A stretch of DNA of 64,000 nucleotides, taken from contig DATKVM010000005.1 of the NCBI GenBank assembly GCA_035530075.1, positions 87,861 through 151,860 on the forward strand, read 5' to 3'. Position numbers and translations under genes: made by a program. Below are positions 2,785-26,721 of this stretch, piece by piece. Numbering within the stretch: the stretch's first letter is position 1; every line of letters starts with the position of its first letter. The DNA is from Patescibacteria group bacterium (lineage in GTDB: Bacteria > Patescibacteriota > Microgenomatia > UM-FILTER-40-11). Below the pieces are notes generated by a model. The model did not search any database and was not told the DNA's origin. It saw only the letters and a program-made list of their open reading frames with translations.

Positions 2785-3264
2785 TTACCAACGGAAGTGA
2801 GCAAAAGCTTTATTCGCTTCGGCCATACGATGAGTATCTTCTCTTTTCTTAACGGCCCCCCCGGTATTATTAAAAGCATCAAGAAGTTCCGCCGCTAATT
2901 TTTCGGCAAAAGTGTGAAATTCAGTACTGGGCCGCTTCTGAGCCGCCAAAATAATCCAGCGAATCGCCAGCGATTCCCGACGGTCACCCCGAACGGGAGC
3001 CGGCACTTGATAAGCCGCTCCACCAATACGCCGAGAACGAACTTCCATCTGCGGCTTAACATTTTCCAAAGCTTGGCGAAAAACCAAAAGCGGGTCCTGG
3101 TTAATTTTAGCCTTAATAATTTCCAAAGCGCCGTGGACCTGCTTTTCCGCGGCCGATTTCTTACCGCTGCGCATCACGCGGTTAACTAATTTTGCCACTA
3201 ACTTATCGCCGTAAACGGTATCTGGAATAACCTCTCTTTTGGAAATTTTTCCCGCTCTTGACAT
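2785..3264 (-). CDS. rpsG: 30S ribosomal protein S7
   Basis: [15 protein letters not shown]...[21 protein letters not shown]... canonical S7 sequence. Confidence 0.95.
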
Positions 3265-7509: not shown

Positions 7510-10500
7510 TGGGCTTCCTCCTCACTTAATTTTTGAATTCCTTCCGTTGGTTGGCCTTTTTCAACCTCCGCTTCCATTGTTGCCCCGGCTATTTCCGCCA
7601 GCTCTTCCGCCGCTTTGCCCATTTTGGCTTCCTCTGCCGTGATCGCTTCATCAACTGGCTTTTCGATTACTCCCTGCGGAATAACATTTAAACCTAAAGC
7701 TTTCAATTCGTTGACCAAAACATTAAACGATTCGGGAACCGAAGCTTCAGGAATATCCACTCCTTTAACTATCGCCTCAAATGCTTTGGCCCGGCCAACC
7801 ACATCATCGGATTTAATCGTCAACATTTCTTGTAAAACATGGGCTGCCTGATGAGCCTCCATCGCCCAAACTTCCATCTCTCCCAAGCGCTGGCCACCCA
7901 TTTGCGCCTTACCGCCAAGCGGCTGTTGAGTGACTAAAGAGTAAGGTCCGGTGGAACGGGCATGGGTTTTGTCTTCCACCATGTGGATTAACTTCATAAT
8001 GTAAGCCACGCCAACCGTTACCTCTTGGTTCATCGCTTCGCCAGTTCTCCCGTCATAAAGCTTGACTTTACCGTTAGCGGGAATATTGGCTTTCTTCATT
8101 TCCTCTTCCATCCGCTCTTCGGCAAACTCTTCGAAAACCGGGATGGCCACTCGATAACCTAACTTCTTGGCTGCCCAGCCTAGATGAGCCTCCAACAATT
8201 GACCCAAGTTCATTCTCGCCAGCACCGAAAGGGGAGAAATAACAATGTCGACTGGTGTTCCATCGGCCAAATAAGGCATATCTTCCACCGACACGACTTT
8301 GGAAATCACTCCCTTGTTGCCGTGTCGACCGGCTAATTTGTCTCCTTCGGTGATTTTTCTGATTTGGGCAACTTTCACTTTGACGACCACATTGACCCCC
8401 GGCTCTAGTTCATCGCCTTTTTCCCGATCTAAAACCTGCACTCCGACGACAATTCCCCGCTCGCCGTGAGGCATTCTTAAGGAAGTATCCCTCACTTCCC
8501 GAGCCTTCTCACCGAAAATCGCCCGGAGGAGCCTTTCTTCCGCTGAAAGCTCAGTTTCTCCCTTGGGAGCAATTTTCCCAACCAAGATATCATTCGGTTC
8601 GACTTCGGCCCCAACGACCACAATTCCATCTTCGGCTAAGTTAGCCAAGTCATGCTCACTAACATTCGGAATGTCACGAGTGAGTTCTTCTGGCCCCAAC
8701 TTTGTATCTACTACTTGCGCTTCGTATTCTTCAATTGAAATCGAGGTGAAAAGGTCTTCCTTGACCAAACGATCAGAAACCACAATCGCATCCTCAAAAC
8801 CCAAACCCTCATATTGAGCATAAGCGATAAGCAAATTTCGACCCAAAGCCAGTTCACCTTCTTCGCATGAAGGGCCATCGATAATCAGCTGACCTTCTTT
8901 TACTGTCTCACCAATCTTAACTAAAGGCTTTTGGGAATAGCAGGTACCAACCGGATTGGTTCGGCGAAATTTAACTACCCGATAAGTTTCCAAATCTCCT
9001 TCTTTGCGATAGAAATCCTCGATAATCTTTTCCTTAACCTTTTTATCGCTTTTAATGACCACTTTCTCGCTATCAACATAAACAACTTTCCCTTTGCCTC
9101 TAGCCTTGATAACCATTCCCATCGCTTCCGCAATTTTATTTTCCATTCCCGTTCCGATAATGGGGGCTTCCGGCGACAATAACGGCACCGCCTGAGTCTG
9201 CATATGAGTTCCCATCAGGGCTCGGTTTGGCTCATCGTTAGCAATAAAAGGAATTAAAGAAGCAGAAGTCCCGACAACCTGTTGCGGAGAAACATCGATT
9301 AAATCCACTCGGTCGCGGGTTACTTCCAAAAAGTCCCCCTTATAACGGACCGGCACCAGCTCGTCTCCAATATAACCATGGCGGTCAATCTTAATCCCCG
9401 CGTGAGTAATGCAAAAATCCTTTTCGTCATCGGCTTGCAGGTAGACAATTTTGTCCGTCACTTTCATTTTCGCCTTGCCATCCACTTTGACTTTTTCTAC
9501 CCGACGATAAGGCGCTTCCAAAAAACCAAATTCATTCACTCGGGCATAAAGGGAAAGATAAGTGACCAAACCGATATTTGGGCCCTCAGGAGAACGCACT
9601 GGGCAAATCCGACTGTACTGCGAAGCATTAATATCTCTAATGGAGAAGGAGGCGCGCTCACGAGTGATTCCTCCTTGACCCATAACCGAAAGCCGGCGCA
9701 AATTATCCAGTTCGGAAAGAGGATTGGTCTGGTCAAGAATTTGCGACAATTGCCCTTGGCGGTAAAATTCATTAATCGCTGAAATAAGCGGTCGAGCATT
9801 AATTAAGGCGCTGGGCTGGACTTTTTCCTCCGTGCTCATCAGAGCCATTCTTTCCTTAATCATTCTCTCCAAACGCAATAGTCCCACTTTAACCGCCGTT
9901 TGAAGAACTAACTCGCCGACTCGCCGAACCCGGCGGTTGGCTAGATGGTCAATATCATCCACTTCGCCTCGGCCAGTCTGCAGATTAACCAGATAAGTGA
10001 TAATTGCGTTCAAATCGGTCCGATTCAAAGTCCAGTTCTCTGGGGCATTGGGAAAATTGAGGCCTAAGCGCTTATTGATTTTGTAGCGGCCAACTTTACT
10101 TAAATCATACCGTCGATTGCTTAAAAACAAATTACGGAAAAATTCTTGAGCATTTTCTAAAATCGCTGGCTCACCCGGACGCAACTTCTTATAAATTTCA
10201 ATTAGGGCTTCTTCGCGAGTCTTAGTCGGATCATATTTGAGAGTCTTTTCAATGAAGGAGCGACCTTTTTCGCCCAAAGTGTCAAAGGCGGAAAGAATTT
10301 CTTCGTCCGTAGAAAAACCAAATGCTCGCAAAAGAACGGTGATGGGAAATTTCCGGCGTCGGTCAATCCGAACGGAAACAACATCATTCCGACCAACAAA
10401 GAATTCTAGCCAAGAACCCTTGACGGGCCTGACTTCAGCCATAAAAAGAGTCCGGCCAGTATTAGGATCAACTTCGCCGGAAAAATAAACACCGGGGGCT

Positions 10501-15942: not shown

Positions 15943-17751
15943 CTATTCCAATATAGCATAAATCCGTCTTTTGCCGGCTCCCGATGATTCTTCTTTCGTG
16001 ATTTTGAACCTACCCAAGACTCCAGTCCGTTCCGCATGAGGACCGCCACACACCTCTTTGGAGAGTTCACCAATGGTATAAACCTTTACCTGCTCCGCAT
16101 ATTTTTGTTCAAAAAAAGCTAAAGCGCCTTTTTCTTTCGCTTCCGCCAACCCCATGGTTTCCGCCGTCACCGGCAAATCCTTTTCAATTTGCTCATTCAC
16201 TAAATCTTCCACTTCTTTAATTTGCTCCTCAGTTAATTTTTCCGGCCAAGTAAAATCAAAACGCAAACGCTCGGCAGTTAAGTTTGACCCGACTTGATGA
16301 ACTTCGGATCCCAAAACTTGCCGCAAAGCCGCGTGCAAAAGATGAGTGGCAGTATGGTATTTGACTACCTGTTCCGACTGATCAGCCAATCCCCCAGCAA
16401 ACTTCTTTTCCGCCCCCGCCCGGGAAAGTTTTTGATGCTCGGCCGAAGCTCGGTCAAATTCTGCTTCATTCACATTGATATCTTTTTCTTTGGCCATCTC
16501 GGCCGTCAGTTCAATTGGAAAGCCAAAAGTCTCATACAAGAAAAAGGCAGTTTTACCTGGTAGTTTTTCTCCACTCGGGAGCCCGCCGATGATTTTTTCA
16601 AATTCTTTAATCCCTCGGGATAAAGTCTTACTAAACCTTTCCTCTTCTTTACTCAATTCCGCCAAAATTTTAACTTTTTCTTGAATAATTTCTGGGTAAA
16701 CCTCGCCCATTGTCTCCATCACCGACTCGGCCACTTCGGTGGCAAAAGGTTTCTCAATCCCGAGCATTTTTCCAAAACGAATGGCTCTTCGGATTAATCT
16801 TCTTAAAACATAGCCCTGCTCCGTGTTTGAAGGAATTATTCCATCTGCAATCAAAAACGTGGCCGCTCTAATATGGTCTGCTATAATTCTGAACCGCTTC
16901 CTTACATCAACCCAGCATTGCTTACCATCCTTTATATACTCCTCATCTGACTTTTCGCCATATTTCAAACCCGATAATCCTTCAATCTTTTGAACAATCG
17001 GCCAAAGAACATCTGTTCTGTAAGCGTCATACTCATTGTTCATAACCATTAGCATCCGCTCGACCCCCATGCCCGTATCAATATTCTTTTGCTTCAGCGG
17101 CTCAAATCTTCCCTCGGCCGTACAGTTATACTGCATAAAGACATCGTTCCAGAATTCTAGATACTTTCCACAACCACAGCCGGGGCGGCAATCAGGCCCA
17201 CAGGCTTCCTCCCCTGTGTCGTAATACATTTCCGAGTCTGGCCCACACGGCCCAATTTTACCAGCCGGACCCCACCAATTATCTTTTTTTCCGAGAAAGT
17301 AAATTCTTTCTTTAGGAATGCCGACTTTCTCCCACAAAGCGGCGGTCTCATCATCGCGCGGAGCATCTTCATCCCCGGCAAAACAAGTGACAGAAATCTT
17401 CTCTTCTGGAATTCCCATCACTTTCGTCATGAATTCATAACTCCAAGGAATCATCTCTTTCTTCCAATAATCGCCAAGCGACCAGTTTCCCATCATCTCA
17501 AAAAATGTCTGATGGCAAGTATCACCAACCTCGTCAATATCCACCGTCCGCAAACATTTTTGGACACTGGCCAGTCTTTTTCCTAAAGGATGCGGCTCAC
17601 CCAAAAGATAGGGGACTAAAGGGTGCATGCCGGCGGAAATAAATAAAGTGGTGGGGTCATTTTCCGGAATCAGCGAAGCCGAAGGTAAAACCTTATGCCC
17701 TTTTTCCCTAAAAAAATCCAAATACTTTTTCCTAAGTTCTTTAGAAGTCAT
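15943..17751 (-). CDS. alaS: Alanine--tRNA ligase, short form (602 aa, lacks C-terminal DHHA1 region)
   Basis: MTSKELRKKYLDFFREKGHKVLPSASLIP...FTNAGM-like...editing-domain HTATHLLHAAL...CGGPH. Confidence 0.93.
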   Translation of the reverse strand: MTSKELRKKYLDFFREKGHKVLPSASLIPENDPTTLFISAGMHPLVPYLLGEPHPLGKRLASVQKCLRTVDIDEVGDTCHQTFFEMMGNWSLGDYWKKEMIPWSYEFMTKVMGIPEEKISVTCFAGDEDAPRDDETAALWEKVGIPKERIYFLGKKDNWWGPAGKIGPCGPDSEMYYDTGEEACGPDCRPGCGCGKYLEFWNDVFMQYNCTAEGRFEPLKQKNIDTGMGVERMLMVMNNEYDAYRTDVLWPIVQKIEGLSGLKYGEKSDEEYIKDGKQCWVDVRKRFRIIADHIRAATFLIADGIIPSNTEQGYVLRRLIRRAIRFGKMLGIEKPFATEVAESVMETMGEVYPEIIQEKVKILAELSKEEERFSKTLSRGIKEFEKIIGGLPSGEKLPGKTAFFLYETFGFPIELTAEMAKEKDINVNEAEFDRASAEHQKLSRAGAEKKFAGGLADQSEQVVKYHTATHLLHAALRQVLGSEVHQVGSNLTAERLRFDFTWPEKLTEEQIKEVEDLVNEQIEKDLPVTAETMGLAEAKEKGALAFFEQKYAEQVKVYTIGELSKEVCGGPHAERTGVLGRFKITKEESSGAGKRRIYAILE

Positions 17752-17878
17752 AATTTTCTTATTTCTTATCTCCTATTTCTTATTTCTTAAATAGAAGTAT
17801 ATCCCAAATCAGCCTCATGGGCAAACGGGAAAAAGCAGATGACGACAAAAAGAGTTCCTGGAAAAAAATTTAAAATAA

Positions 17879-17900
17879 CCCTTGGCCTCAGAATTTTCTC
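17879..17900 (+). repeat. Island motif copy 1 (degenerate): ccttggcctcagaattttctc
   Basis: Member of a 9-copy family with consensus tCCCCTTGCCCCCGAATTTTCTG; preceded by cctggaaaaaaatttaaaataac, which recurs at 18398. Confidence 0.6.
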
Positions 17901-17960
17901 ATCAAAGATTTCATAACTGTACTGTTGAAAGTTACCACATTTTTGTCATAATTAAATAAG

Positions 17961-18383
17961 ATGAGTTGGAGCAAAATTGTTTACCTTATTTTTTCAAACT
18001 TCTTGGCTTTTTTGTTTTATTATGTTGCAACCGCTTTCCTGTTTGATTATTCCCAATTTTGGTTGTTTTGGGTATTCTTCTCTTTGAATTTTGCCCTCTC
18101 CTTGGTTCTGATTTTAACCACAAAAAATAAAGGCATAAGCAAGAAAAGTTTTTTGTTGCATTTGGCTCCTGCAATTATCTTTATCGACATCTTTTTCCTT
18201 CCTTCAAAATTTTGCGGAACTGAAAGCAAAGGGGGAACCATAAGCTCATGTGAATGTCGGGGAATTCTAAAGAATAGGAGTCTTTTTTCTACTGCTTGTA
18301 TCGGCAAAAGGGTCAAGTGCTATGAGCATTTGCTCTATTCTCAAGGTGGAGGCGTAGTTGAAATACCTTGCCCCGATTACTAG
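17961..18383 (+). CDS. Hypothetical small membrane protein (140 aa)
   Basis: ORF with hydrophobic N-terminal half; plausible promoter TTGAAA-16-CATAAT upstream; bracketed by two copies of a 23-nt direct repeat. Confidence 0.3.
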   Translation: MSWSKIVYLIFSNFLAFLFYYVATAFLFDYSQFWLFWVFFSLNFALSLVLILTTKNKGISKKSFLLHLAPAIIFIDIFFLPSKFCGTESKGGTISSCECRGILKNRSLFSTACIGKRVKCYEHLLYSQGGGVVEIPCPDY

Positions 18384-18420
18384 AAAAAACTCAATATCCT
18401 GGAAAAAAATTTAAAATAAC

Positions 18421-18444
18421 TCCTTGTTTCCCTCCGAAATTCTC
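18421..18444 (+). repeat. Island motif copy 2 (degenerate): tccttgtttccctccgaaattctc
   Basis: Preceded by the identical 23-mer cctggaaaaaaatttaaaataac (18398-18420), as in copy 1. Confidence 0.6.
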
Positions 18445-18457
18445 TTAAAAGCACATA

Positions 18458-18949
18458 TCAGGGTAAAAGCTCTTGGAGGACTTGGTTGATAAATTCCCAC
18501 TGGCCGGGAAAGACAAAGTGACTGGAAAGGTTTTCTCTTTTAACCCACTTGACTTGACGAATCTCGTCTTTTTTAAATTTAATTTCTTTCATTGAACCAG
18601 TAAACTTTACCAAAAAATGCGTTTGTTGTTGACCTCTCCAAGTTTCACCTTCTTTTCTGAGCCTACTCAAAATTACTCCCATTGGCCATTCATATTGGCT
18701 GCGGTATTGACTAACGCCAATTAGTTCAAAATTACTGGTTCCCAACTCTTCTACTAGTTCCCTCAATAGTGCCCCCTGAGGGCTTTCTCCATCATCAATT
18801 CCTCCACCCGGAAACCGCCACTCGTTTTCTTTATAATCAACCATCTGGACAATCAAAAAATTGTTGTTTTTATCGACAACCACCCCTACTGTCCCCTGGC
18901 GATAACCAAGTTTTTCTATATCAATACTGTTTTCATCGATAGCCGCCAT
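18458..18949 (-). CDS. NUDIX hydrolase
   Basis: Nudix box GGGIDDGESPQGALLRELVEELG (G-x5-E-x7-REUxEExGU). Confidence 0.8.
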   Translation of the reverse strand: MAAIDENSIDIEKLGYRQGTVGVVVDKNNNFLIVQMVDYKENEWRFPGGGIDDGESPQGALLRELVEELGTSNFELIGVSQYRSQYEWPMGVILSRLRKEGETWRGQQQTHFLVKFTGSMKEIKFKKDEIRQVKWVKRENLSSHFVFPGQWEFINQVLQELLP

Positions 18950-19014
18950 TCGTAATCATATTTTACCAAATAATTATTTTCTTGCCTTACCTAACATTCT
19001 TCGATGCTTGATTT

Positions 19015-19110
19015 TTCTATGTTTATATTGAAAAGCCAGTTAAAACAGGTGTCGGTTCTGAATTCAGCGTTTTTGGGCCGTATAAGACCTGTTACACCTG
19101 GAAGCTATAA
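19015..19110 (+). pseudogene. 3'-terminal gene fragment homologous to the C-terminus of the 22203-22817 gene
   Basis: 19023-19110 is about 85% identical to 22721-22810, encoding ...EKPVKTGVGSEFSVFGPYKT..., but there is no upstream ORF; part of a direct repeat that also carries the island motif. Confidence 0.5.
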
Positions 19111-19162
19111 AGCTAGATAACAAAATAGCAATGTAACAATTTAACAATGGAACAATGAAATT

Positions 19163-19188
19163 CTCCCCTTTTCCCCCGAATTTTCTTA
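19163..19188 (+). repeat. Island motif copy 3: ctccccttttcccccgaattttctta
   Basis: 28 nt upstream of the ASCH-like gene ATG; followed by TGgTAAAAT extended -10-like sequence. Confidence 0.7.
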
Positions 19189-19215
19189 TTTCCCACTTCT
19201 GGTAAAATTAAAGAA

Positions 19216-19515
19216 ATGAACTGTATTCCTTTCCCTTCCTCCTACAAAAAGTCTCTGCTTAGTAAAACCAAAAACATAACGATTCGAATTAAGAATGAAT
19301 TGGGCAAATATAAAGTCGGAAAAATCTATAAAGCAACTTCTTGTTCCGGGAAAGAATGGGGTATTAGACTTAAAGTTAATCGGGTAAACAAAACCACGGT
19401 TGATAAACTATCAAGTTATGCTATCCCCCAAAAAACAATTAATCCACTTCTTAAAAAAGGAGATGTTTCACCCAAAAGTATGGTTGAAGTTGTTAGCTTT
19501 GAAGTAATTGATTAA
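19216..19515 (+). CDS. Small protein, possibly ASCH/PUA-like (99 aa)
   Basis: Size and the pattern ...KNITIRIKN...YKVGKIY...VVSFEVID loosely fit ASCH domains; weak. Confidence 0.35.
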   Translation: MNCIPFPSSYKKSLLSKTKNITIRIKNELGKYKVGKIYKATSCSGKEWGIRLKVNRVNKTTVDKLSSYAIPQKTINPLLKKGDVSPKSMVEVVSFEVID

Positions 19516-19539
19516 CTCACTTACTGGCACAATGTTTTT

Positions 19540-19570
19540 CTTTCCCCATTTTTGCCCCCGAATTCTCTGG
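19540..19570 (+). repeat. Island motif copy 4: ctttccccatttttgcccccgaattctctgg
   Basis: 40 nt upstream of the GNAT gene ATG. Confidence 0.7.
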
Positions 19571-19610
19571 AGCCAAATCATTCAACATTAGTTTTGTTAT
19601 AATCAGGACA

Positions 19611-20159
19611 ATGAAAAGATTTGAAATTCCAGTTGATAAGGATCTGGTTATTCAATCCTGGAAACTGGAAAGTGCGGCTGAATTATTTCAACTAACCGAT
19701 AAAAACAGGAAACAACTCCAAGGATGGTTAGTTTGGGTTCCAGAAACAAAGGGGGAAGAAGATTCCCGAAAATTCATCCAAAGGTGCCTTAAAGAGTATG
19801 AGGAGCAAACCGGTTTGGAATTGGGAATTTGGTATAAAGATAAATTAATTGGTTGTATCGGACTTCATGATATTAATAAAAACAGCCGAAGAGCTAGCAT
19901 TGGTTATTGGTTAGCAGCTGAATATCAAGGAAAGGGAATAATGACAAAGGCAGTCAGGAATTTAATAAATTTTGGCTTCAAGAAGCTCGATTTAAACAGA
20001 ATCGGTCTTGGGGCGGGAAAAGAAAACTTAAAAAGCCGAGCAATTGCTGAAAGACTAGGATTTACCCAAGAAGGAACTTTAAGGAAATATGAGTTTATTG
20101 ATGGCCGATTTGTTGACCATGTAGTCTACAGTATTCTTCAAGAAGAGTGGAAGGGATAG
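19611..20159 (+). CDS. GNAT family N-acetyltransferase (RimL/RimJ-like)
   Basis: ...IGCIGLHDINKNSRRASIGYWLAAEYQGKGIMTKAV...RIGLGAGKENLKSRAIAERLGF typical of RimL-type GNATs. Confidence 0.8.
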   Translation: MKRFEIPVDKDLVIQSWKLESAAELFQLTDKNRKQLQGWLVWVPETKGEEDSRKFIQRCLKEYEEQTGLELGIWYKDKLIGCIGLHDINKNSRRASIGYWLAAEYQGKGIMTKAVRNLINFGFKKLDLNRIGLGAGKENLKSRAIAERLGFTQEGTLRKYEFIDGRFVDHVVYSILQEEWKG

Positions 20160-20169
20160 AATTAAAGAG

Positions 20170-20508
20170 ATGCGGCCCATTGCCCCTTATTTAAAAAAGA
20201 ACCGACTTCTTTTTTGGAAAATAATCCTTTGGTTGATTTTGCTTTACGCCATCCAACACACAGTAAGAGATATCCTTCAGCAGTTCTTTGGAATTAATAA
20301 TGTCTTTACGGGATTCGCTCACAGAGAAGCCTCGAACGCCATCTGGTGCGGGCAGTATTGTAAATGGACCACTCTTCCGGTAAAAATCTTTTATATCTTT
20401 TCCTCAATTTATCTCTTGCGGAAGCAAAAATTTGGTTGGTTGGGATGGATGATGATTATCATTATTATCCCTGTTCTTCTTCAATACCTCGACCTTATTA
20501 TTAAATGA
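20170..20508 (+). CDS. Hypothetical membrane protein (112 aa)
   Basis: Two or three hydrophobic segments; only ORF-level support. Confidence 0.3.
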   Translation: MRPIAPYLKKNRLLFWKIILWLILLYAIQHTVRDILQQFFGINNVFTGFAHREASNAIWCGQYCKWTTLPVKIFYIFSSIYLLRKQKFGWLGWMMIIIIIPVLLQYLDLIIK

Positions 20509-20533
20509 GATTCCCCCTTGCCCCAAATTTTCG
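20509..20533 (+). repeat. Island motif copy 5: attcccccttgccccaaattttcgg
   Basis: Immediately after the stop of the 20170-20508 ORF; no plus-strand gene follows directly (a minus-strand gene does). Confidence 0.6.
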
Positions 20534-20542
20534 GTTTTTCTT

Positions 20543-20914
20543 TTAGCGAAAAAGGCGTTCCATGGAGAAATACGAAGAATGGATTATCTCTCCTACTTCC
20601 AAAAACCTAAAAACTAGGATAGTCACTAAATTCACCACTAAAAATATTGTCAGAATTTTTAATGGCCTGGTTTTGCTTTTAAACCAGAGGAAAGCAAACA
20701 AAAATAATTCCGCTAAACTCATAAATATTCCTAAATACAACGGCTGGGTTTCATTATAATGGAGATTTAAAGCCGGGAAAGGAAGATAAAACAAAAACCC
20801 TTGCCCAAGCAGTAAGCCGTCAGAAGGGAAAATTTTATTAGCAAGAGAATTCCCAACCACCAAAAAAAGAGAGTAAAGCAAAATTGCCGTCGTCCCTTTT
20901 ATTACCTTGGCCAT
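20543..20914 (-). CDS. Hypothetical polytopic membrane protein (123 aa)
   Basis: Four hydrophobic helices; the only minus-strand gene inside the island. Confidence 0.4.
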   Translation of the reverse strand: MAKVIKGTTAILLYSLFLVVGNSLANKIFPSDGLLLGQGFLFYLPFPALNLHYNETQPLYLGIFMSLAELFLFAFLWFKSKTRPLKILTIFLVVNLVTILVFRFLEVGEIIHSSYFSMERLFR

Positions 20915-20929
20915 AGTCTAATTGTATCA

Positions 20930-20955
20930 CTTTCCCCTTGCCCCCGAATTTTCTG
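20930..20955 (+). repeat. Island motif copy 6: tttccccttgcccccgaattttctga
   Basis: About 95 nt upstream of the ATG at 21053; TATAAT at 21037-21042. Confidence 0.7.
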
Positions 20956-21052
20956 AAGTCTTATTCTGGAAGAAAAATTGCTTGGGAAACCTGGAACTCT
21001 CTAAACCTATAATTTGACAAAGTTTGGAAAGCTTTCTATAATTCCAACCCAT

Positions 21053-21574
21053 ATGGCAACAGAAGATTTAACCGGCAGGCAAGACATCCCAGTTTCACGG
21101 ATCCGAACCTTGCAAGAAGGTGTTGAAGACGTAAGGACTCTACTTGGAGGAATGACAGATACGATTTTGCCTCAAGGTAGAGAGGTAATTCAACTACAAC
21201 GAGAAAATTATCAATCAAGAACCTTCCAAAGAGCAGCTTTTGATGCAATGCCAGAAAGGTATGGTCGCTTCGATAGGTCTCTAATCATTATCACTTTTGA
21301 CAATAGAGCCCAAACATTTATCGTAACCGGAAGAACTTCGTCAGGAAATCCTTTTGAAGTAATGCACGCAACAATGGAGGGTTTAGATTTAAGAGGAACA
21401 CATACTGTAATCTATGAATATGACGGAAATGAAACCATTGTTGAAAGAAATCCCACGGGAGAAATTAACACTTGCCAGGGAGAATACGGCAAACCGGAAG
21501 CATTACTGCCACTTATCAGAAAAAGATTGGGTATCTTAGTGGGGGAGGAATTTATACAACCCCAAGAAGGCTAA
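21053..21574 (+). CDS. Hypothetical protein (about 173 aa from ATG 21053; the ORF track starts at TTG 21014)
   Basis: MATEDLTGRQDIPVSRIRTLQEG...; no recognisable domain; TATAAT 10 nt upstream of the ATG. Confidence 0.5.
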   Translation: MATEDLTGRQDIPVSRIRTLQEGVEDVRTLLGGMTDTILPQGREVIQLQRENYQSRTFQRAAFDAMPERYGRFDRSLIIITFDNRAQTFIVTGRTSSGNPFEVMHATMEGLDLRGTHTVIYEYDGNETIVERNPTGEINTCQGEYGKPEALLPLIRKRLGILVGEEFIQPQEG

Positions 21575-21589
21575 TCTCTTCCAAGCTAA

Positions 21590-21617
21590 TTTTTCCCCTT
21601 GCCCCCGAATTTCCTGA
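21590..21617 (+). repeat. Island motif copy 7: tttttccccttgcccccgaatttcctga
   Basis: Followed by TGgTAGAAT and the ATG of the NUDIX gene 20 nt later. Confidence 0.7.
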
Positions 21618-21636
21618 TTTCTGGTAGAATTGGGTT

Positions 21637-22155
21637 ATGGCTGATTTTCAAAAAGTCCCAAAACTGGGAGATGAATATTTATATATCCCTTTTGTCGGGG
21701 CAATCATTGAAAGAAGTTTCCAGGGAGAAAAACAAATCTTAGTCCAAACCAGGGTAAAGAAGGTGGATGTAAAATACAGCGGCAGTTTGGAAATTCCTGG
21801 GGGAAAATTAAGGGCCTTTGAAGATGTTTACGAAACCCTAAGAAGAGAGGTAAAAGAAGAGTGCGGCTTAGAACTTATTTCTATTGAAGGAGAGGATAAG
21901 AGAGAGTCGTTTATCAACCGAGAGGATAAATCAGACTTGATTGAACCGCTCTGTGTTACTCAAATGAAAAATGGTCCATTTATTGGCTTAATTTTTCTTT
22001 GCCGAGCGGAAGGGGAACCTTTAATCAAAACCGATGAAACGAAAGAGGCTCAATGGATGAACGTTAGTGAACTGAAGAAAATCGTTGAAGAAACTCCGGA
22101 ACAAATATATACTGCTTTTTTGGCTCCTCTGAAAAAATATATAAGGCAAGTTTAG
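21637..22155 (+). CDS. NUDIX hydrolase (second, divergent)
   Basis: Nudix box GGKLRAFEDVYETLRREVKEECGL. Confidence 0.75.
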   Translation: MADFQKVPKLGDEYLYIPFVGAIIERSFQGEKQILVQTRVKKVDVKYSGSLEIPGGKLRAFEDVYETLRREVKEECGLELISIEGEDKRESFINREDKSDLIEPLCVTQMKNGPFIGLIFLCRAEGEPLIKTDETKEAQWMNVSELKKIVEETPEQIYTAFLAPLKKYIRQV

Positions 22156-22160
22156 TAATT

Positions 22161-22177
22161 GTTCCCGAATTTTTTGA
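22161..22177 (+). repeat. Island motif copy 8 (truncated): gttcccgaattttttga
   Basis: Followed by GGTAGAAT and the ATG at 22203. Confidence 0.5.
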
Positions 22178-22202
22178 TTTCTTCTTTTGGTAGAATTAGT
22201 AA

Positions 22203-22817
22203 ATGAGTAATATCGCTTCAGCAAAAGCATTTGGGCGCTTTGCAACTTCAATAATCCCTCAAAAAGCCACTGATCAAGAAAAAATAGAAGTTATCCAAAA
22301 AGCAGCCAAAAGATACAACTCAGCTGCAGAACCCGAAAAACAGATTTCTCTTTTGTATCATTTTACTGACACGCAAGGAGCGCAGGCAATCAAAGAAACG
22401 CAAATAATAGGTAGAAGAGGGGCAAGACTATATCTTACCCCCGTTTCTCCTAAAATGGCTCAACCATTATGTTCGCCTGAAAATGCCCGCGGGTATGAGA
22501 AATATTTTCGGGACAAAGTTATGCCGGCAAACCTAAAAGAACACTTGGAAAGATTTGTTCTCGGACTTAAGTTTAAATGGGAATATGGTATCCAAATGAA
22601 GGCAAGACAAAAGAAAGGAGAAGCAGTTATTCCCGTTGGAGCTCACAAGCTGGAGAATGTGTTCGCGCTAGCCACTAAAGTCAATAACCCCTCTCTTAAA
22701 AGAGACCAGCAGGGAGAAATTTATATTGAAAAGCCCGTTAAAACAGGTACCGGTTCTGAATTTAGCGTTTTTGGACCGTATAGGCCTGTTACGCCTGGAA
22801 GGTATAAAGCTAGATAA
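22203..22817 (+). CDS. Hypothetical protein (204 aa); its C-terminus is duplicated as a fragment at 19015-19110
   Basis: No domain recognised; ...LLYHFTDTQGAQAIKETQIIG...; 3' end followed by a GC-rich hairpin at 22837-22880. Confidence 0.55.
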   Translation: MSNIASAKAFGRFATSIIPQKATDQEKIEVIQKAAKRYNSAAEPEKQISLLYHFTDTQGAQAIKETQIIGRRGARLYLTPVSPKMAQPLCSPENARGYEKYFRDKVMPANLKEHLERFVLGLKFKWEYGIQMKARQKKGEAVIPVGAHKLENVFALATKVNNPSLKRDQQGEIYIEKPVKTGTGSEFSVFGPYRPVTPGRYKAR

Positions 22818-22898
22818 CGAGATAACAATCTAGCAACCCGCCTGCCTTCGCCTAATGGCAAAACCCATGGCGGGCAGGTGTAACAATGAAACAATAGA

Positions 22899-22925
22899 AT
22901 CTCCCCTTGCCCCCGAATTTTCTGA
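22899..22925 (+). repeat. Island motif copy 9: atctccccttgcccccgaattttctga
   Basis: Part of the 22713-22927 direct repeat that matches 19015-19190. Confidence 0.7.
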
Positions 22926-23109
22926 GGCCGGTTTTGGACTTTGGGGTAACTTATGTTTGCCTGTTAAAGGCTATTGTGATATACTACTTTCAGAACAGAT
23001 TGGAACTAATCAATTTGTTTAAATTTGATTTTGCCTCTCGAAGGACAGAGACTTCTCCAATTTAGACAGCTTCATTCGTTTACAATCAGTTTGCAGGAGG
23101 AGGCAGTCA

Positions 23110-23373
23110 ATGACTAATCCAGCGGGAAATGTTTGCATTCGTTGCGGTAAAATCCGGGTAATCGCCAAGACCTGGGAAGAACAATCAGGGACATCGACCC
23201 TTACCTGCTCTTCTTTTGTCTGCCCGAATGCGGATTGTCAAAAAATTGTCGAGAAAGAGTTGGCTAAAAGGAAAAGGGACAAAGAAACGAGCGAAAGAGA
23301 ACGGGCAGAAAGAATCCTAGCCAACAGAAAACCTCGTCCCGCCTCGCCGGGAGAAAAGAAAGACAAGAGGTAA
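23110..23373 (+). CDS. Small zinc-ribbon protein with a K/R/E-rich tail (87 aa)
   Basis: CIRCGK...CSSFVCPNADC four-Cys pattern; strong SD GCAGGAGGAGG upstream. Confidence 0.5.
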   Translation: MTNPAGNVCIRCGKIRVIAKTWEEQSGTSTLTCSSFVCPNADCQKIVEKELAKRKRDKETSERERAERILANRKPRPASPGEKKDKR

Positions 23374-23374
23374 T

Positions 23375-23671
23375 TTATTTTTTCTTGCGCCAGAAGAACC
23401 TTTTGCTGGGCTTACTTATTTTCTTCACTACCGGCTCAATCTTTTCCGGTAATTCTTCTACCTTTTCCAAAACCGCTTTCCCCAGCTCTCCCCCTTTTTC
23501 CGCCGCTTCTTTACTAAAATCTTCCAGGCTCTCCAAAATCTCTTTACCTTTGGCAATCAGTTTCTTTTTATCTTTTTCATCTGCCACGGCCAAATAGGAA
23601 GCCACTGCCCCGGCTAACCCACCAACAACTATCCCTAGCCAAAAGCCATTGTGATTTTCTTCATTCTCCAT
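23375..23671 (-). CDS. YtxH-like small membrane-anchored protein
   Basis: N-terminal TM with GxxxGxxxA spacing followed by a K/E-rich coiled region. Confidence 0.45.
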   Translation of the reverse strand: MENEENHNGFWLGIVVGGLAGAVASYLAVADEKDKKKLIAKGKEILESLEDFSKEAAEKGGELGKAVLEKVEELPEKIEPVVKKISKPSKRFFWRKKK

Positions 23672-23957
23672 TCTTTTTAGCCTCCGAAGTTTTCTTGCCT
23701 GAGCGGTTCTTAATAAAGAAATTAAATAAATCCGTTCCGCTTTTTAGGCCGGTCACAAAACCGGAAATGCCGGCAATCGGCTTGGCTATCGAAGAAGTAA
23801 CTACTTGAAAATCATCCACAATTTTATTGGTTTTTTTCATCATTGTCTTTAGCTCGCTCAAAATGTGGATAACCTGAATACCGGCAATGGTTAAAAGAGT
23901 CGTTAAAACAGCCACAACAAGGAAAAGAAGAATTTGATTAAGGTAAGGTATTTGCAT
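23661..23957 (-). CDS. Small membrane protein (DUF948-like)
   Basis: Single N-terminal TM followed by an amphipathic region; 98 aa. Confidence 0.4.
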   Translation of the reverse strand: MQIPYLNQILLFLVVAVLTTLLTIAGIQVIHILSELKTMMKKTNKIVDDFQVVTSSIAKPIAGISGFVTGLKSGTDLFNFFIKNRSGKKTSEAKKNGE

Positions 23958-24015
23958 TTGGCTAAATCTAGTCTAAGAGTTTCCGAAAACCTTGTCAACG
24001 GTTAAGCAAGGAGAT

Positions 24016-24648
24016 TTACTCTACCTTCACTTTTAAAGTGACTGTCCTTTTTTTCCCCTGACGGTTACTGGATTCTACAATCAGCATATTCTCCCCCCGT
24101 GGCAAAATAATTTCTTCCTTGAAGCTTCCGTCTTCGGCAATAGAAATGAGACTGCCATTGATTTTCACCGAAGCATCTTTATCGGTTTTACCTACTATTG
24201 GCACTTTCTCCTTAAAAAGCTGGCCATCTTTCGGCGAAGTCACCTCCAAAGGAGGCGCGGAAGAAAAACTCATATATTGCCGGACAAAGAAAAAGACAAA
24301 GCCCAAAATCAAAAGGGAGACCCCGGCAATGAGCGTGGCCTTGGGCGTCCAGTAATAATTTTTCTCGGCCAAAGACTCCACCATTCCTCGGGGAATAATT
24401 TGTCCCTTTTGGTTTTCCCGAAAATCCCGCCGGAAAACCGCCAAAACGCTGCTCACTTCTAACTCCAAAGCTTGGGCGTAATTACGGATAAAGCCCTTAA
24501 CAATGGTGCTTTCCGCGATGACGGCAAAATCATTCTTTTCAATTGCTTCCAGATACTTGCGCCGGATTTTGGTTTCCTTTTCAATTTCTTCTAAAGAAAG
24601 CCCCAAGTCTTTTCTTTTTTCGGAAAGAATTTCGCCGACAGTCCTCAT
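24016..24648 (-). CDS. rodZ: RodZ-like cytoskeleton protein (XRE-type HTH + TM + C-terminal domain)
   Basis: N-terminal HTH LSEKRKDLGLSLEEIEKETKIRRKYLEAIE, one TM, C-terminal beta-rich domain. Confidence 0.65.
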   Translation of the reverse strand: MRTVGEILSEKRKDLGLSLEEIEKETKIRRKYLEAIEKNDFAVIAESTIVKGFIRNYAQALELEVSSVLAVFRRDFRENQKGQIIPRGMVESLAEKNYYWTPKATLIAGVSLLILGFVFFFVRQYMSFSSAPPLEVTSPKDGQLFKEKVPIVGKTDKDASVKINGSLISIAEDGSFKEEIILPRGENMLIVESSNRQGKKRTVTLKVKVE

Positions 24649-24654
24649 GAAGCT

Positions 24655-26721
24655 TTAACCTTCCTGGGAAGCGTAATCGCCGGCATTTTTCATTAACACT
24701 TCTCTTGGTTTGGCTCCCTCTCCCAGGCCAATAATGCCTGCCGCTTCCAGCTGGTCAATAATGCGAGCCGCCCGGTTATAACCAATCGATAGTCGCCGCT
24801 GCAGCAAAGAAGCGGAGGCCCGGTCAAACTGGCAAACAATTTTCACCGCTTCCTCAAAAAATTCATCTCGGTCGCCGGCACCCCCCGCCCCACCGCCAGC
24901 AGCTGGTCCCACATCTTCCGTCACTTCTTCGGTATAAACCGGCCGGACGCCGGTTTTGTTCAGGAATTCAATGAGCTTCTGAACCTCACCATCGGAAACA
25001 AAAGCACCTTGAATCCGACTCGGTTTAGCCTGATCCGGCGGAATATAAAGCATATCTCCTCGACCCAAAAGCTTCTCCGCCCCCGGGCTGTCTAAAATTA
25101 CCCGAGAGTCAGTCATTGAGGCGACGGCAAAGGAAAGCCGGGCCGGAATGTTGGCCTTAATTAAGCCTGTCAAAACATCAACGGAGGGTCGCTGAGTCGC
25201 AATCACTAAGTGAATTCCTGTTGCTCGGGCCATTTGGGCCAGGCGGCAGATATTATCCTCCACTTCCGCCGGGGCAAACAAAATAATATCAGCCAGCTCG
25301 TCAATGATAATGACAATGTAGGGCAAGGCCTGGAAACCGGAAAGCTCATTAAACATTTCAATATTACGCGCTCCTGCCTGGGCAAAGAGCTTGTAGCGAC
25401 GGTCCATTTCCCGAGTGGCCCACTTTAAAGCCTTAACGACATTTTCCGGCTCGACAATCACCGGCGTTAGCAAATGAGGCACACCGGCGTATTGAGTGAA
25501 TTCTACTCGTTTAGGGTCAACTAAGATTAGTCTCACTTCAGAAGGAGTGGTCCGAAAAAGGAAAGTGGAAATCCAAGAGTTAAGGAGAACCGATTTTCCG
25601 CTACCGGTTTGGCCGGCAATCAAAACATGAGGCATTTTACTGATGTTGGCTGTTTTTGGCTGGCCAGAAACATCTAACCCCAAGGGGGTCAAAAGCTTGT
25701 TTTTTGGATCGCGCATCGCGGAGCTACTAAGAATTTGCCTTAGGGTCACTATTTCCAAAGAGCGGTTAGGCAGTTCAATTCCCACTAAAGACCGGCCGGG
25801 AATCGGCGCTTCCACCCGGATTTGGCCGGTCGGGGCCGCTAAAGCTAAGGCTAGGTCATTGGCTAAAGCGGTAATTTTAGAAAGCTTGGTCCCTAAAGCA
25901 ACTTCAATCGCATATTGAGTCACTGCCGGCCCATCATTAATTTCCACCACCCGGGCAGAAATGCCAAAAGAATCAAATGTCCGTTCAATGGTCGCCGCAT
26001 TGGTCTTTACATCCCCTCGGTCTGCTTTACCCCCGGCACTATCAATTAAGAGCGAAAGGGGCGGATAATTCCAAACCGCATTTTGCGCCCCCGGCACATT
26101 GGCTGCCGCTGCCGGTAAATCTTCGATTTCATCTGTCCCCGGCTTTGTCTGCTCCCGAGTCATTTCAGAACGAGTCACCACCGATTTATTCCCCAACTTC
26201 CCCTGAATAAATTGAGGGGTCTTCGCTTTACCCGAGACGCCTCTAAAAGAGCGGAAAAATTCCAAAACCGCTAAGATAATTTGGTCAAATGAAGTATTCG
26301 AAAGAACCACAAAACCAACCAGGGTGCAACTCACCAAAACTAAATAAGTCCCCACCGGCGTGATTAAATAAGCCAACTGGGCAAAAATTTGCTCGCCCAC
26401 CAAACCGGACTTAGTTAAGCTCATTAAGGCCGTGGCCATCAACCCTCCACCCGCTAAAACCGCCGCCTGATTCCAGGGAAGGTCAAACCGCGTCAGCATT
26501 AACCCGCCTAAGAGGGAGAAAAAAACCAAGAAAATCGTTCCCCAGCCGAAAATCTTTAACAAAAACAAATTGAGTTGATATAAAACTATTCCCTGTTGAG
26601 TAAAAGAAAGCGCTACCAATAAGGCAAAACAAAAAAGGAAAATGTAAGAAATAGAGTAAAGGGCGTCTTTTTTAAGCTTCAGCCGAAAACGGCGCTTTAA
26701 CCAACCTTTTCTCCTGGCCAT
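24655..26721 (-). CDS. ftsK: DNA translocase FtsK/SpoIIIE
   Basis: Four N-terminal TM helices; Walker A GQTGSGKS; gamma domain ...LLQRRLSIGYNRAARIIDQLE. Confidence 0.92.
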   Translation of the reverse strand: MARRKGWLKRRFRLKLKKDALYSISYIFLFCFALLVALSFTQQGIVLYQLNLFLLKIFGWGTIFLVFFSLLGGLMLTRFDLPWNQAAVLAGGGLMATALMSLTKSGLVGEQIFAQLAYLITPVGTYLVLVSCTLVGFVVLSNTSFDQIILAVLEFFRSFRGVSGKAKTPQFIQGKLGNKSVVTRSEMTREQTKPGTDEIEDLPAAAANVPGAQNAVWNYPPLSLLIDSAGGKADRGDVKTNAATIERTFDSFGISARVVEINDGPAVTQYAIEVALGTKLSKITALANDLALALAAPTGQIRVEAPIPGRSLVGIELPNRSLEIVTLRQILSSSAMRDPKNKLLTPLGLDVSGQPKTANISKMPHVLIAGQTGSGKSVLLNSWISTFLFRTTPSEVRLILVDPKRVEFTQYAGVPHLLTPVIVEPENVVKALKWATREMDRRYKLFAQAGARNIEMFNELSGFQALPYIVIIIDELADIILFAPAEVEDNICRLAQMARATGIHLVIATQRPSVDVLTGLIKANIPARLSFAVASMTDSRVILDSPGAEKLLGRGDMLYIPPDQAKPSRIQGAFVSDGEVQKLIEFLNKTGVRPVYTEEVTEDVGPAAGGGAGGAGDRDEFFEEAVKIVCQFDRASASLLQRRLSIGYNRAARIIDQLEAAGIIGLGEGAKPREVLMKNAGDYASQEG

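Follow-up and report, generated by a model that had tools for sequence, protein, structure and literature searches.

Between the alanyl-tRNA synthetase gene alaS and an operon of ytxH-like, rodZ-like and ftsK genes, a small-genome groundwater/soil Patescibacterium of the Microgenomates type carries an array of small accessory genes (17.86–23.37 kb) whose joints are marked by a C-rich motif of 23 nt. The array was analyzed within a 64-kb stretch of contig DATKVM010000005.1, which is referred to as the window. In the following the motif is named B, with the G of its GAATT serving as anchor for distances, and the AT-rich element of 21–24 nt which adjoins B on the 5′ side where intact is named A. 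A variable array at a single chromosomal site has B, together with A, at its joints, and the cassettes between these joints are autonomous expression units. The comparison with related genomes shows that cassettes are gained, lost and replaced at the A/B elements. B itself is not a promoter, a hairpin site, a repetitive extragenic palindrome (REP) or an intrinsic terminator.

Eight to nine copies of B were detected between 17.88 and 22.93 kb, all of them on the plus strand, and none elsewhere in the window. The 22-mer CCCCTTGCCCCCGAATTTTCTG (up to 3 mismatches) matched four times, always on the plus strand, at 19.1–22.9 kb and not once in 100 shuffled sequences. A 13-nt core (up to 2 mismatches) picked up copies 1 and 3–9, again all on the plus strand, with six other matches in the window compared to ~6 expected by chance. 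A position weight matrix was trained on the window and on the related arrays L022 and L024. At a threshold of 18 bits this matrix gave no match in 322,826 background positions (non-island DNA of this clade) and seven matches, in a single orientation, in the 8.9 kb of three islands outside the training set. Thus, the nine copies in one orientation which the initial annotation of this DNA had listed are far above chance. Its identity values needed partial correction. Scored against its consensus without/with gaps, copies 1 to 9 matched at 17/19, 12/18, 19/21, 17/22, 18/20, 23/23, 22/22, 15/16 and 23/23 of 23 positions. Copies 1, 2 and 8 are indeed degenerate and copies 3, 4 and 5 reach 20–22 of 23 with one indel permitted; copies 6, 7 and 9, previously given as 19–20 of 23, are really at 23, 22 and 23. 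A genome-wide occurrence, which according to the initial annotation would point to a general promoter element, was not observed: neither the other 58 kb of the window nor ~100 kb of DNA flanking the islands of relatives contains B. A degenerate form of the 22-mer gave four single matches in unrelated taxa among the GTDB species representatives, which is chance level, and nine single matches in JGI metagenomes, of which L013 alone was a real relative. These collection scans say little on the distribution of B because the 22-mer is too strict for the variants of L022. In viral contigs B had no match and A one chance match, and there was no link to phages.

Homologs of the alanyl-tRNA synthetase (AlaRS) place the organism among the Patescibacteria, close to Microgenomates/Shapirobacteria. 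The same locus was fetched from relatives using AlaRS and the rodZ-like protein as handles. Motif, orientation and chromosomal site were the same in six genomes (the window, L022/L033, L024, L013, L036 and L037), and the gene content differed between them. The array of L022/L033 (AlaRS 81%) consists of a gene for a protein resembling REP-associated tyrosine transposases (RAYT-like), NUDIX145, A·B, a reversed methyltransferase gene, B, a 195-aa ortholog of the 204-aa open reading frame (ORF) of the window, and a terminal B before the flank. L024 (AlaRS 78%) carries a RAYT-like gene, NUDIX128, A, a 161-aa ORF, A, a reversed 123-aa ORF, B and a peptide deformylase gene (def) before the flank. In L013 the 3′ end of an S51 peptidase gene is followed by A, a reversed NUDIX163 gene and one strong B. 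The order in L036 is caspase-like gene, S51 peptidase gene, B, reversed 156-aa ORF, NUDIX138, B, GNAT192, B, 162-aa ORF, weak A·B, 81-aa zinc-ribbon gene and flank; in L037 it is reversed 123-aa ORF, B, S51 peptidase gene, B, def, B, 198-aa ORF, 86-aa zinc-ribbon gene and flank. The relatives lacking the motif are more distant. In L026–L028 (AlaRS 74%) the site is empty and the ytxH-like gene lies 53 nt from alaS, and L025 (AlaRS 74%) contains a different island without the motif, composed of a helicase gene, a 220-aa ORF and an ortholog of the minus-strand NUDIX gene of the window. With shared flanks, differing gene sets, one empty site and the motif at the junctions, the region is variable and accessory, as had been proposed. 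The GC content, for which a comparison had been recommended, is lower in the island (0.355–0.41) than in the flanks (~0.42–0.50).

Pairwise BLAST comparison of the islands placed the start or end of shared blocks ~−26 to +23 nt from the anchor at almost every junction. Homology begins at −3/−3 for the 204/195-aa cassette and at −4/−4 for def. It extends from +18 past one B to +12 past the next for the S51 peptidase gene and from +23 to −26 for the 161/162-aa cassette, and it ends at +19 for the reversed 123-aa cassette. In the window, homology with the L022 cassette begins at CCCGAATT, 3 nt before the anchor of copy 8, and at copy 6 homology with L024 stops at 20965, right past ...TTTTCTGAAGT. 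The reversed 123-aa gene with its B has a different right neighbour in each of three genomes, namely a 173-aa ORF (window), def (L024) or the S51 peptidase gene (L037). The S51 peptidase genes of L036 and L037 are 98–99% identical over their last ~86 nt together with A/B and 66–88% identical elsewhere, and homology ends right after ...CTGAAG. In nucleotide identity, some cassettes exceed the rodZ-like flank gene (88 versus 77%, 86 versus 72% and 79 versus 71%); the 123-aa cassette with its B is 88% identical to L024, its flanks 75–77%. This higher identity is compatible with lateral exchange of cassettes but is no proof of it.

The array position following NUDIX145/128 was found in three states: a single A·B in L022, A-140aa-A in the window and A-161aa-A in L024. 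In the window, copies 1 and 2 each directly follow one unit of a perfect 24-nt direct repeat, TCCTGGAAAAAAATTTAAAATAAC, and the 140-aa gene is enclosed by the two units. The direct A repeats around the two insertions agree at 24/24 nt in the window and at 21/21 nt in L024, and both cassettes are missing in L022. Such a set of states is the footprint that would be expected if a one-site circular unit recombined with a resident site. Compared with L025 and L013, cassette 1 (the 140-aa ORF) is an insertion with the alaS promoter region on one side and the ancestral minus-strand NUDIX gene on the other. Only junction 1 and, to its left, a remnant of ~10 nt matching the NUDIX145 3′ end of L022 separate it from the alaS promoter region. 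Orthologs of the 163-aa NUDIX gene are located beside alaS in L025 and beside the single B in L013, and this gene is the oldest resident of the site.

Furthermore, A provides the final codons and the stop codon of unrelated genes, namely those of the S51 peptidase (...WEKI*), of NUDIX145/128 and of the 161/162-aa protein (...WKKI* in the 161-aa gene). Consequently, gene ends have been joined to the element repeatedly. Read as one sequence, A and B provide a stop in each of the three frames (TAA twice, and TGA within ...TTCTGA) at 17856–17901, at 3089–3038 of L022 and at the junctions after the S51 peptidase gene in L036 and L037; an ORF fused to A/B is therefore terminated inside the element. 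Taken together, the comparisons support a role of A/B as recombination joints. Assembly data from the same strain may point in the same direction. At the left A copy, within 17847–17875, breaks occur in six metagenome contigs, which stem from at least five samples and three assemblers (L010 and L011 end at 17850, L012 ends at ~17875, and L047, L044 and L048 start at 17847, 17854 and 17855), and none breaks at the right copy (18397). This pattern suggests population heterogeneity at the left copy, perhaps an unassembled alternative junction, because a 24-nt repeat should not break assemblies with k=31 or k=141 and only one of the two copies is affected.

Some junctions contain decay products, an orphan 3′ gene fragment (19022–19139) and a 37-nt remnant (20960–20996) of a gene which is intact in L024 and L036. 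Together with the decayed copies 1, 2, 8 and possibly 18980–19004, these gene fragments would suit repeats that are passive relics, left by tandem duplications of a single intergenic region long ago, with no present function. We consider this explanation very unlikely, as three window copies are conserved at 22–23 of 23 positions despite unrelated flanks and near-consensus copies persist in genomes with core genes of 71–84% nucleotide identity. Selection, recent spread or gene conversion is required for this persistence.

The position of B relative to the genes differs from that first described. Seven copies do lie upstream of plus-strand ORFs, and minus-strand genes come next after copies 2 and 5, as had been noted. 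The next start codon, however, follows B at anything from 19 to 184 nt across the arrays (59, 27, 40, 96, 19, 25 and 184 nt in the window), and in 8 of 13 cases B overlaps the upstream stop codon or starts no more than 8 nt past it. Thus, B belongs to the 3′ side of a cassette, and to treat it as an upstream element of the following gene is less accurate. The orientation of the motif is independent of that of the genes, since the two cassettes with minus-strand genes still carry a plus-strand B. Moreover, the terminal copy is not followed by a gene in L013 and L022. Both observations speak against B as a promoter or operator that serves the gene downstream of it.

In every cassette a separate −10 element is located downstream of B. 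Apart from cassettes with a −35/−10 pair (Table 1), most contain an extended −10 (TGnTAnAAT) which ends 6–10 nt before the ATG and is not accompanied by a Shine-Dalgarno sequence (window 19199–19215, 19595–19610, 21622–21636, 22188–22202 and others), so most cassettes are predicted to be leaderless. Leaders with a ribosome-binding site (RBS) of the GGAG type are, in contrast, present at alaS and the 87-aa gene. B and the −10 element are 18 to ~85 nt apart, the TTGCCC inside B is at least 20–30 nt from the nearest −10, and no match of the promoter scan includes B. B lacks the features of a sigma-70 promoter, in which −35 and −10 are spaced by 16–18 nt at a fixed distance to the start. Because of the variable distance B is not a core promoter, in agreement with the original remark that it was not simply a fixed one, and B as a promoter was rejected. 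Of the three roles initially considered, that of a recombination site gains from the breakpoints, that of a mobile promoter is disfavoured by the downstream −10 elements and that of a shared operator is conceivable.

This leads to the question of whether B is purely regulatory, either an operator or a factor-dependent element such as a Rho-type terminator or insulator, with gene variation unrelated to it. B is C-rich and G-poor, less structured than shuffled sequence and placed directly after stop codons. In six cassettes it precedes the −10 by 18–25 nt, a position at which a repressor or activator could act, the stretch from B as far as the −10 can be aligned between cassettes with different genes, and a copy at the end of the array would protect the convergent ftsK/rodZ operon against antisense read-through. 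However, the distance between B and the −10 is variable, B has the wrong orientation for expression of the reversed cassettes, and Rho loading sites are not known to require a conserved 23-mer. A regulatory role by itself also leaves unexplained why homology ends at B, why A/B repeats flank insertions and why gene ends are fused to A. A purely regulatory B is therefore unlikely in our view.

Folding of both strands of the 70 nt around each of 13 copies revealed no shared hairpin or attC-like structure (z mostly above 0), and B has no dyad symmetry. A stem followed by a T-tract, as in an intrinsic terminator, was not present at any junction. An Rfam search of the island gave nothing significant, only one sub-threshold chance match (E = 0.65; 23.4 bits versus a gathering score of 65). 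These results bear on the idea that a REP-associated tyrosine (HUH/Y1) transposase-like protein moves the cassettes as single-stranded DNA with A·B as cleavage and joining site. In two relatives a RAYT-like gene (211 aa; NCBIfam 59 bits, cut-off 80) adjoins alaS and heads the array (L022 3609–4345, equivalent to L033 8100–8790, and L024 ~9430–10001), and the window retains the ~10-nt remnant of the module after this gene. Around and even within its coding sequence the RAYT-like gene has classical REP-like hairpins of its own, GTAGGGGCGAATCATGATTCGCCC, which are unrelated to B. Both the gene (tblastn) and the REP hairpins are absent from the window. HUH/Y1-family enzymes recognise hairpins, and B has none. 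The likeness to REP/RAYT systems is thus limited to short intergenic repeats and to the RAYT-like gene of the two relatives; known REP repeats are palindromic, possess a conserved GTAG head and are dispersed over the genome, whereas B is non-palindromic and occurs at one locus in one orientation. Movement by such an enzyme appears most improbable of all. Several other candidates were dropped: DNA uptake sequences and Chi sites should occur genome-wide, iterons, CRISPR repeats and tRNA-derived att cores do not resemble B, and miniature inverted-repeat transposable elements (MITEs) would have terminal inverted repeats or target duplications, neither of which is present.

A dedicated site-specific recombinase encoded elsewhere in the genome deserves closer attention. 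A·B would then be an att-type core at which circular one-site cassettes integrate and excise. Perfect repeats of 24 and 21 nt flank the cassettes that are present in one genome and absent from another, and the unoccupied state is a single site. The sites are oriented uniformly regardless of gene orientation, each cassette has one site abutting its 3′ end as with attC, and L013 has a single strong B 13 nt from the flank (its array being seen up to the contig end). In addition, three independent homology starts fall at −3/−4, in the centre of B. The window copies, three of them at 22–23 of 23 positions, are closer to each other than to the L022 copies, and attC families are species-specific. Strict orientation, perfect insertion repeats, the single-site state and the three homology starts in mid-B thus favour a dedicated site. 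Nevertheless, no integrase, recombinase or transposase was detected by Pfam scan of all ORFs of at least 120 aa in the 64-kb window and of the island ORFs, and the annotations of the relatives list none up to 10 kb from the array; the recombinase search recommended in the initial annotation was accordingly negative for the 64 kb. No protein is common to all arrays, B lacks dyad symmetry and a hairpin on either strand, and the breakpoints spread over ~50 nt instead of falling on one nucleotide. A dedicated recombinase is a possible but doubtful explanation. We regard with the same reserve the wider proposal of a cassette-capture system of Patescibacteria not described before, which would combine a fixed locus, leaderless units, linear unstructured att-like A·B sites of 23–45 nt and a non-integron recombinase encoded in trans.

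The comparison with known site-specific systems revealed clear similarities and differences. As in integrons, short cassettes of unrelated function are arrayed in one direction on a fixed chromosomal platform, each with one conserved 3′ site in a single orientation whatever the orientation of the ORF. The site copies look homogenised within a genome, and gene content varies among relatives. In contrast to integrons, there is no intI within the 64 kb, no attI was recognised, the sites are linear, asymmetric and unstructured sequences of 23–45 nt instead of the folding imperfect palindromes of attC, and the cassettes have their own promoters and are mostly leaderless, whereas integron cassettes are promoterless units read from Pc. 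The earlier statement that this is not a classical integron was therefore correct, as intI, attC folding and promoterless cassettes all failed when checked. Tandem integrative elements at an att site, for example by tRNA genes, also consist of units separated by direct copies of a short identical core, which is found on both sides of a unit here too (24 nt in the window, 21 nt in L024), and unoccupied, singly and multiply occupied states likewise exist among relatives. Unlike these elements, the present units measure 0.4–1.4 kb, contain one or two small non-recombinase ORFs and no integrase, have neither a tRNA gene nor the 3′ end of a conserved gene as target, and have repeats that hug the 3′ end of each cargo gene. 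A pdif-type Xer/dif site comprises 28 bp with two inverted 11-bp arms and a 6-bp spacer, and such sites alternate in orientation; B differs by its lack of dyad symmetry and by copies that are all direct.

In form the array resembles the promoter/stem-loop (PeSL) "mobile regulatory cassettes" of T4-like phages, for which recombination was shown to give mini-circles (Arbiol et al. 2010, PMC2839356; Comeau et al. 2014, PMC4122927). In both cases core genes enclose a hyperplastic region in which small non-essential ORFs are flanked by short intergenic elements of conserved sequence, the elements contain the endpoints of the insertions, deletions and replacements that distinguish relatives, and the element lies near a sigma-70-type promoter of the next ORF. 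The differences are that the present element resides in a cellular chromosome and is confined to one locus, that there is no stem-loop terminator at or beside B, that the promoter is separate at a distance of 18–85 nt, and that the array is known from assembled contigs alone, in contrast to the mini-circles of the phages. The array is integron-like in logic and PeSL-like in form, and it is a member of neither family.

Breakpoints over ~50 nt, the similarity that extends in some cassettes with different genes from B through the promoter to the ATG, and the lack of a recombinase nearby favour a route based on homology. Our preferred, though tentative, interpretation is that B is the junction element of a chromosomal cassette array, kept at one fixed site in a small clade of Microgenomates, in which recombination of the PeSL kind acts on short shared sequence and a function in cis keeps B. 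A cassette consists of an extended −10 promoter of its own, one or occasionally two usually leaderless ORFs in either orientation, and A/B at the 3′ end. Recombination between two direct copies would release a circle or delete a cassette, and a cassette might re-insert at another A/B copy; transformation with DNA of relatives may contribute. The most likely enzymology would be recombination on 23–45 nt of shared sequence, as in the PeSL cassettes. Some function of B is demanded by its conservation across genomes with core genes of 71–84% identity. B might be kept by a cis function at the 3′ ends of the cassettes, for example insulation of the cassettes and of the convergent essential operon from read-through. 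We speculate that plus-strand transcripts are insulated by the C-rich, G-poor B, which is unstructured as RNA.

Several points weigh against this interpretation. A recombination product (a circle, a deletion junction or an alternative arrangement in one population) was not found in the same-strain contigs; those spanning the island, from several metagenomes, are 99.6–100% identical to the window and have the same gene order. The compared genomes are distant (71–84% nucleotide identity in the rodZ-like gene), and each difference between them therefore sums many events. Neither a fixed nor a diffuse crossover point emerges, because BLAST ends are fuzzy and the co-variation of motif halves with flanks was not significant (Mantel test, underpowered owing to few shared flanks). 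Moreover, 21–45 nt is at the lower limit for RecA-dependent exchange. With regard to the proposed cis function, B is not a classical terminator, as it has neither hairpin nor T-tract. Finally, the higher identity of cassettes could result from selection instead of transfer, and the contig breaks could be of technical origin.

The features of the locus are listed in Table 1. The gene families named in the initial annotation (two NUDIX hydrolases, a GNAT acetyltransferase and a weak ASCH/YqfB-like match) were all recovered, and NUDIX genes recur across the arrays. PADLOC returned generic NUDIX matches only. PDB sequence searches with three cassette proteins gave nothing significant, with chance matches for the 204-aa (E = 0.29) and the 87-aa protein (E = 0.14). 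The weak match of the 204-aa protein to the Tox-ART-HYD1 ADP-ribosyltransferase toxin domain covers residues 51–85 with the motif LYHFTD (E = 0.0011). This protein is rare, with 8 homolog clusters among 5.8 billion proteins. Its homologs led to a small-gene cluster from Hainich groundwater (L029) in which the motif was not found. This unrelated contig encodes a 231-aa homolog and contains intergenic tRNA-like halves, GCTCCCCTGTAGCTCAGCGGTAGAGCAG ... GGTTCGAATCCTACCGGGGGAGC, more than 200 nt apart at 500–830 and 2560–2690, where ARAGORN calls no tRNA. Between the 204-aa gene and copy 9 of the window, a stable hairpin is located inside a 117-nt segment (22783–22899) which is unique in the window and missing from the L022 ortholog. 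The zinc-ribbon gene holds the terminal position before the flank also in L036, L037 and L050. The 587-aa caspase-like gene of L036 (9399–11162; Peptidase_C14, EACC1-associated type, sub-threshold), which adjoins the S51 peptidase gene, is bigger and more conflict-system-like than the other cassettes. In the flank, one same-strain contig (L007/L041) has a 24-nt in-frame deletion in a ytxH-like gene (window ~23375–23671), which shortens the protein from 98 to 90 aa. The right-flank operon reads toward the island, and the remaining window consists of housekeeping genes (rpoBC, rpsLG, proS, obg, RNase J, PNPase, infB, nusA, dnaKJ/grpE/hrcA, murJ, pilNO and glycosyltransferases).

Table 1. Features of the cassette array and its flanks in window coordinates; nt, nucleotide identity.
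Feature	Position	Strand	Remarks
alaS (alanyl-tRNA synthetase), left flank	15943..17751	-	Pfam; conserved in all relatives
alaS promoter TTGCCC-N17-TATACT	17824-17796	-	promoter scan
Junction 1: A 17856-17879 (TCCTGGAAAAAAATTTAAAATAAC) and degenerate B 17879-17901 (copy 1)	17856..17901	+	89% over 54 nt to L022
Cassette 1, 140-aa ORF	17961..18383	+	putative membrane protein in the initial annotation; own promoter TTGAAA-N16-CATAAT 17925-17952
Junction 2: second perfect A 18397-18420 and degenerate, indel-bearing B 18421-18446 (copy 2)	18397..18446	+	
NUDIX hydrolase, 163 aa	18458..18949	-	RppH-like below threshold; 74% nt to L025, 83% to L013
Tentative tenth, decayed B	18980..19004	+	by eye; orthologous to strong B of L013; below matrix threshold
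Orphan 3′ fragment, last ~30 codons and 3′ untranslated region; paralog of 204-aa gene	19022..19139	+	85-92% to 22720-22836
B copy 3	19166..19188	+	
99-aa ORF	19216..19515	+	weak ASCH/YqfB-like match; extended -10 TGGTAAAAT ending 7 nt before ATG
B copy 4	19548..19570	+	
Two-gene cassette: GNAT acetyltransferase, 182 aa (19611-20159), and 112-aa ORF (20170-20508)	19611..20508	+	GNAT RimL-like below threshold; extended -10 TGTTATAAT ending 7 nt before first ATG
B copy 5	20513..20535	+	starts 4 nt past upstream stop
Reversed cassette, 123-aa ORF	20543..20914	-	with next B 88% nt to L024
B copy 6	20934..20956	+	23/23 to consensus
37-nt remnant, 3′ end of 161-aa-type gene	20960..20996	+	89% to L024 8373-8337
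173-aa ORF cassette, ATG 21053	21014..21574	+	12/12 consensus promoter TTGACA-N17-TATAAT 21014-21042
B copy 7	21595..21617	+	22/23 to consensus
NUDIX hydrolase, 172 aa	21637..22155	+	extended -10 TGGTAGAAT ending 6 nt before ATG
B copy 8	22155..22177	+	left half replaced by NUDIX gene end
204-aa ORF	22203..22817	+	weak sub-threshold Tox-ART-HYD1 match; ortholog in L022 array
Stable GC-rich hairpin	22838..22880	+	fold of 22815-22905: -26.8 kcal/mol, z = -3.55
B copy 9	22903..22925	+	23/23 to consensus
87-aa zinc-ribbon protein, basic tail	23110..23373	+	GGAGG RBS; TTGCCT-N17-TATACT 22957-22985
Right flank: two 98-aa ytxH-like genes, rodZ-like HTH (helix-turn-helix) gene, ftsK	23375..26721	-	conserved

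Patescibacteria have tiny genomes, and the ways in which they take up and swap accessory genes are little known. Cassette arrays organised by junction repeats are already known in kind, and this array differs from the known members. A limited search of the searchable literature found no description of such arrays in Patescibacteria. The locus is a compact array of self-expressed cassettes in which the content turns over between lineages and the junction sequence is kept. If A/B is a true recombination site, the locus would represent a cassette system unlike integrons, with no hairpin sites, no adjacent integrase and promoters borne by the cassettes. If recombination on short homology is at work instead, the PeSL idea of regulatory repeats that double as shuffling points would extend from phages to cellular chromosomes.

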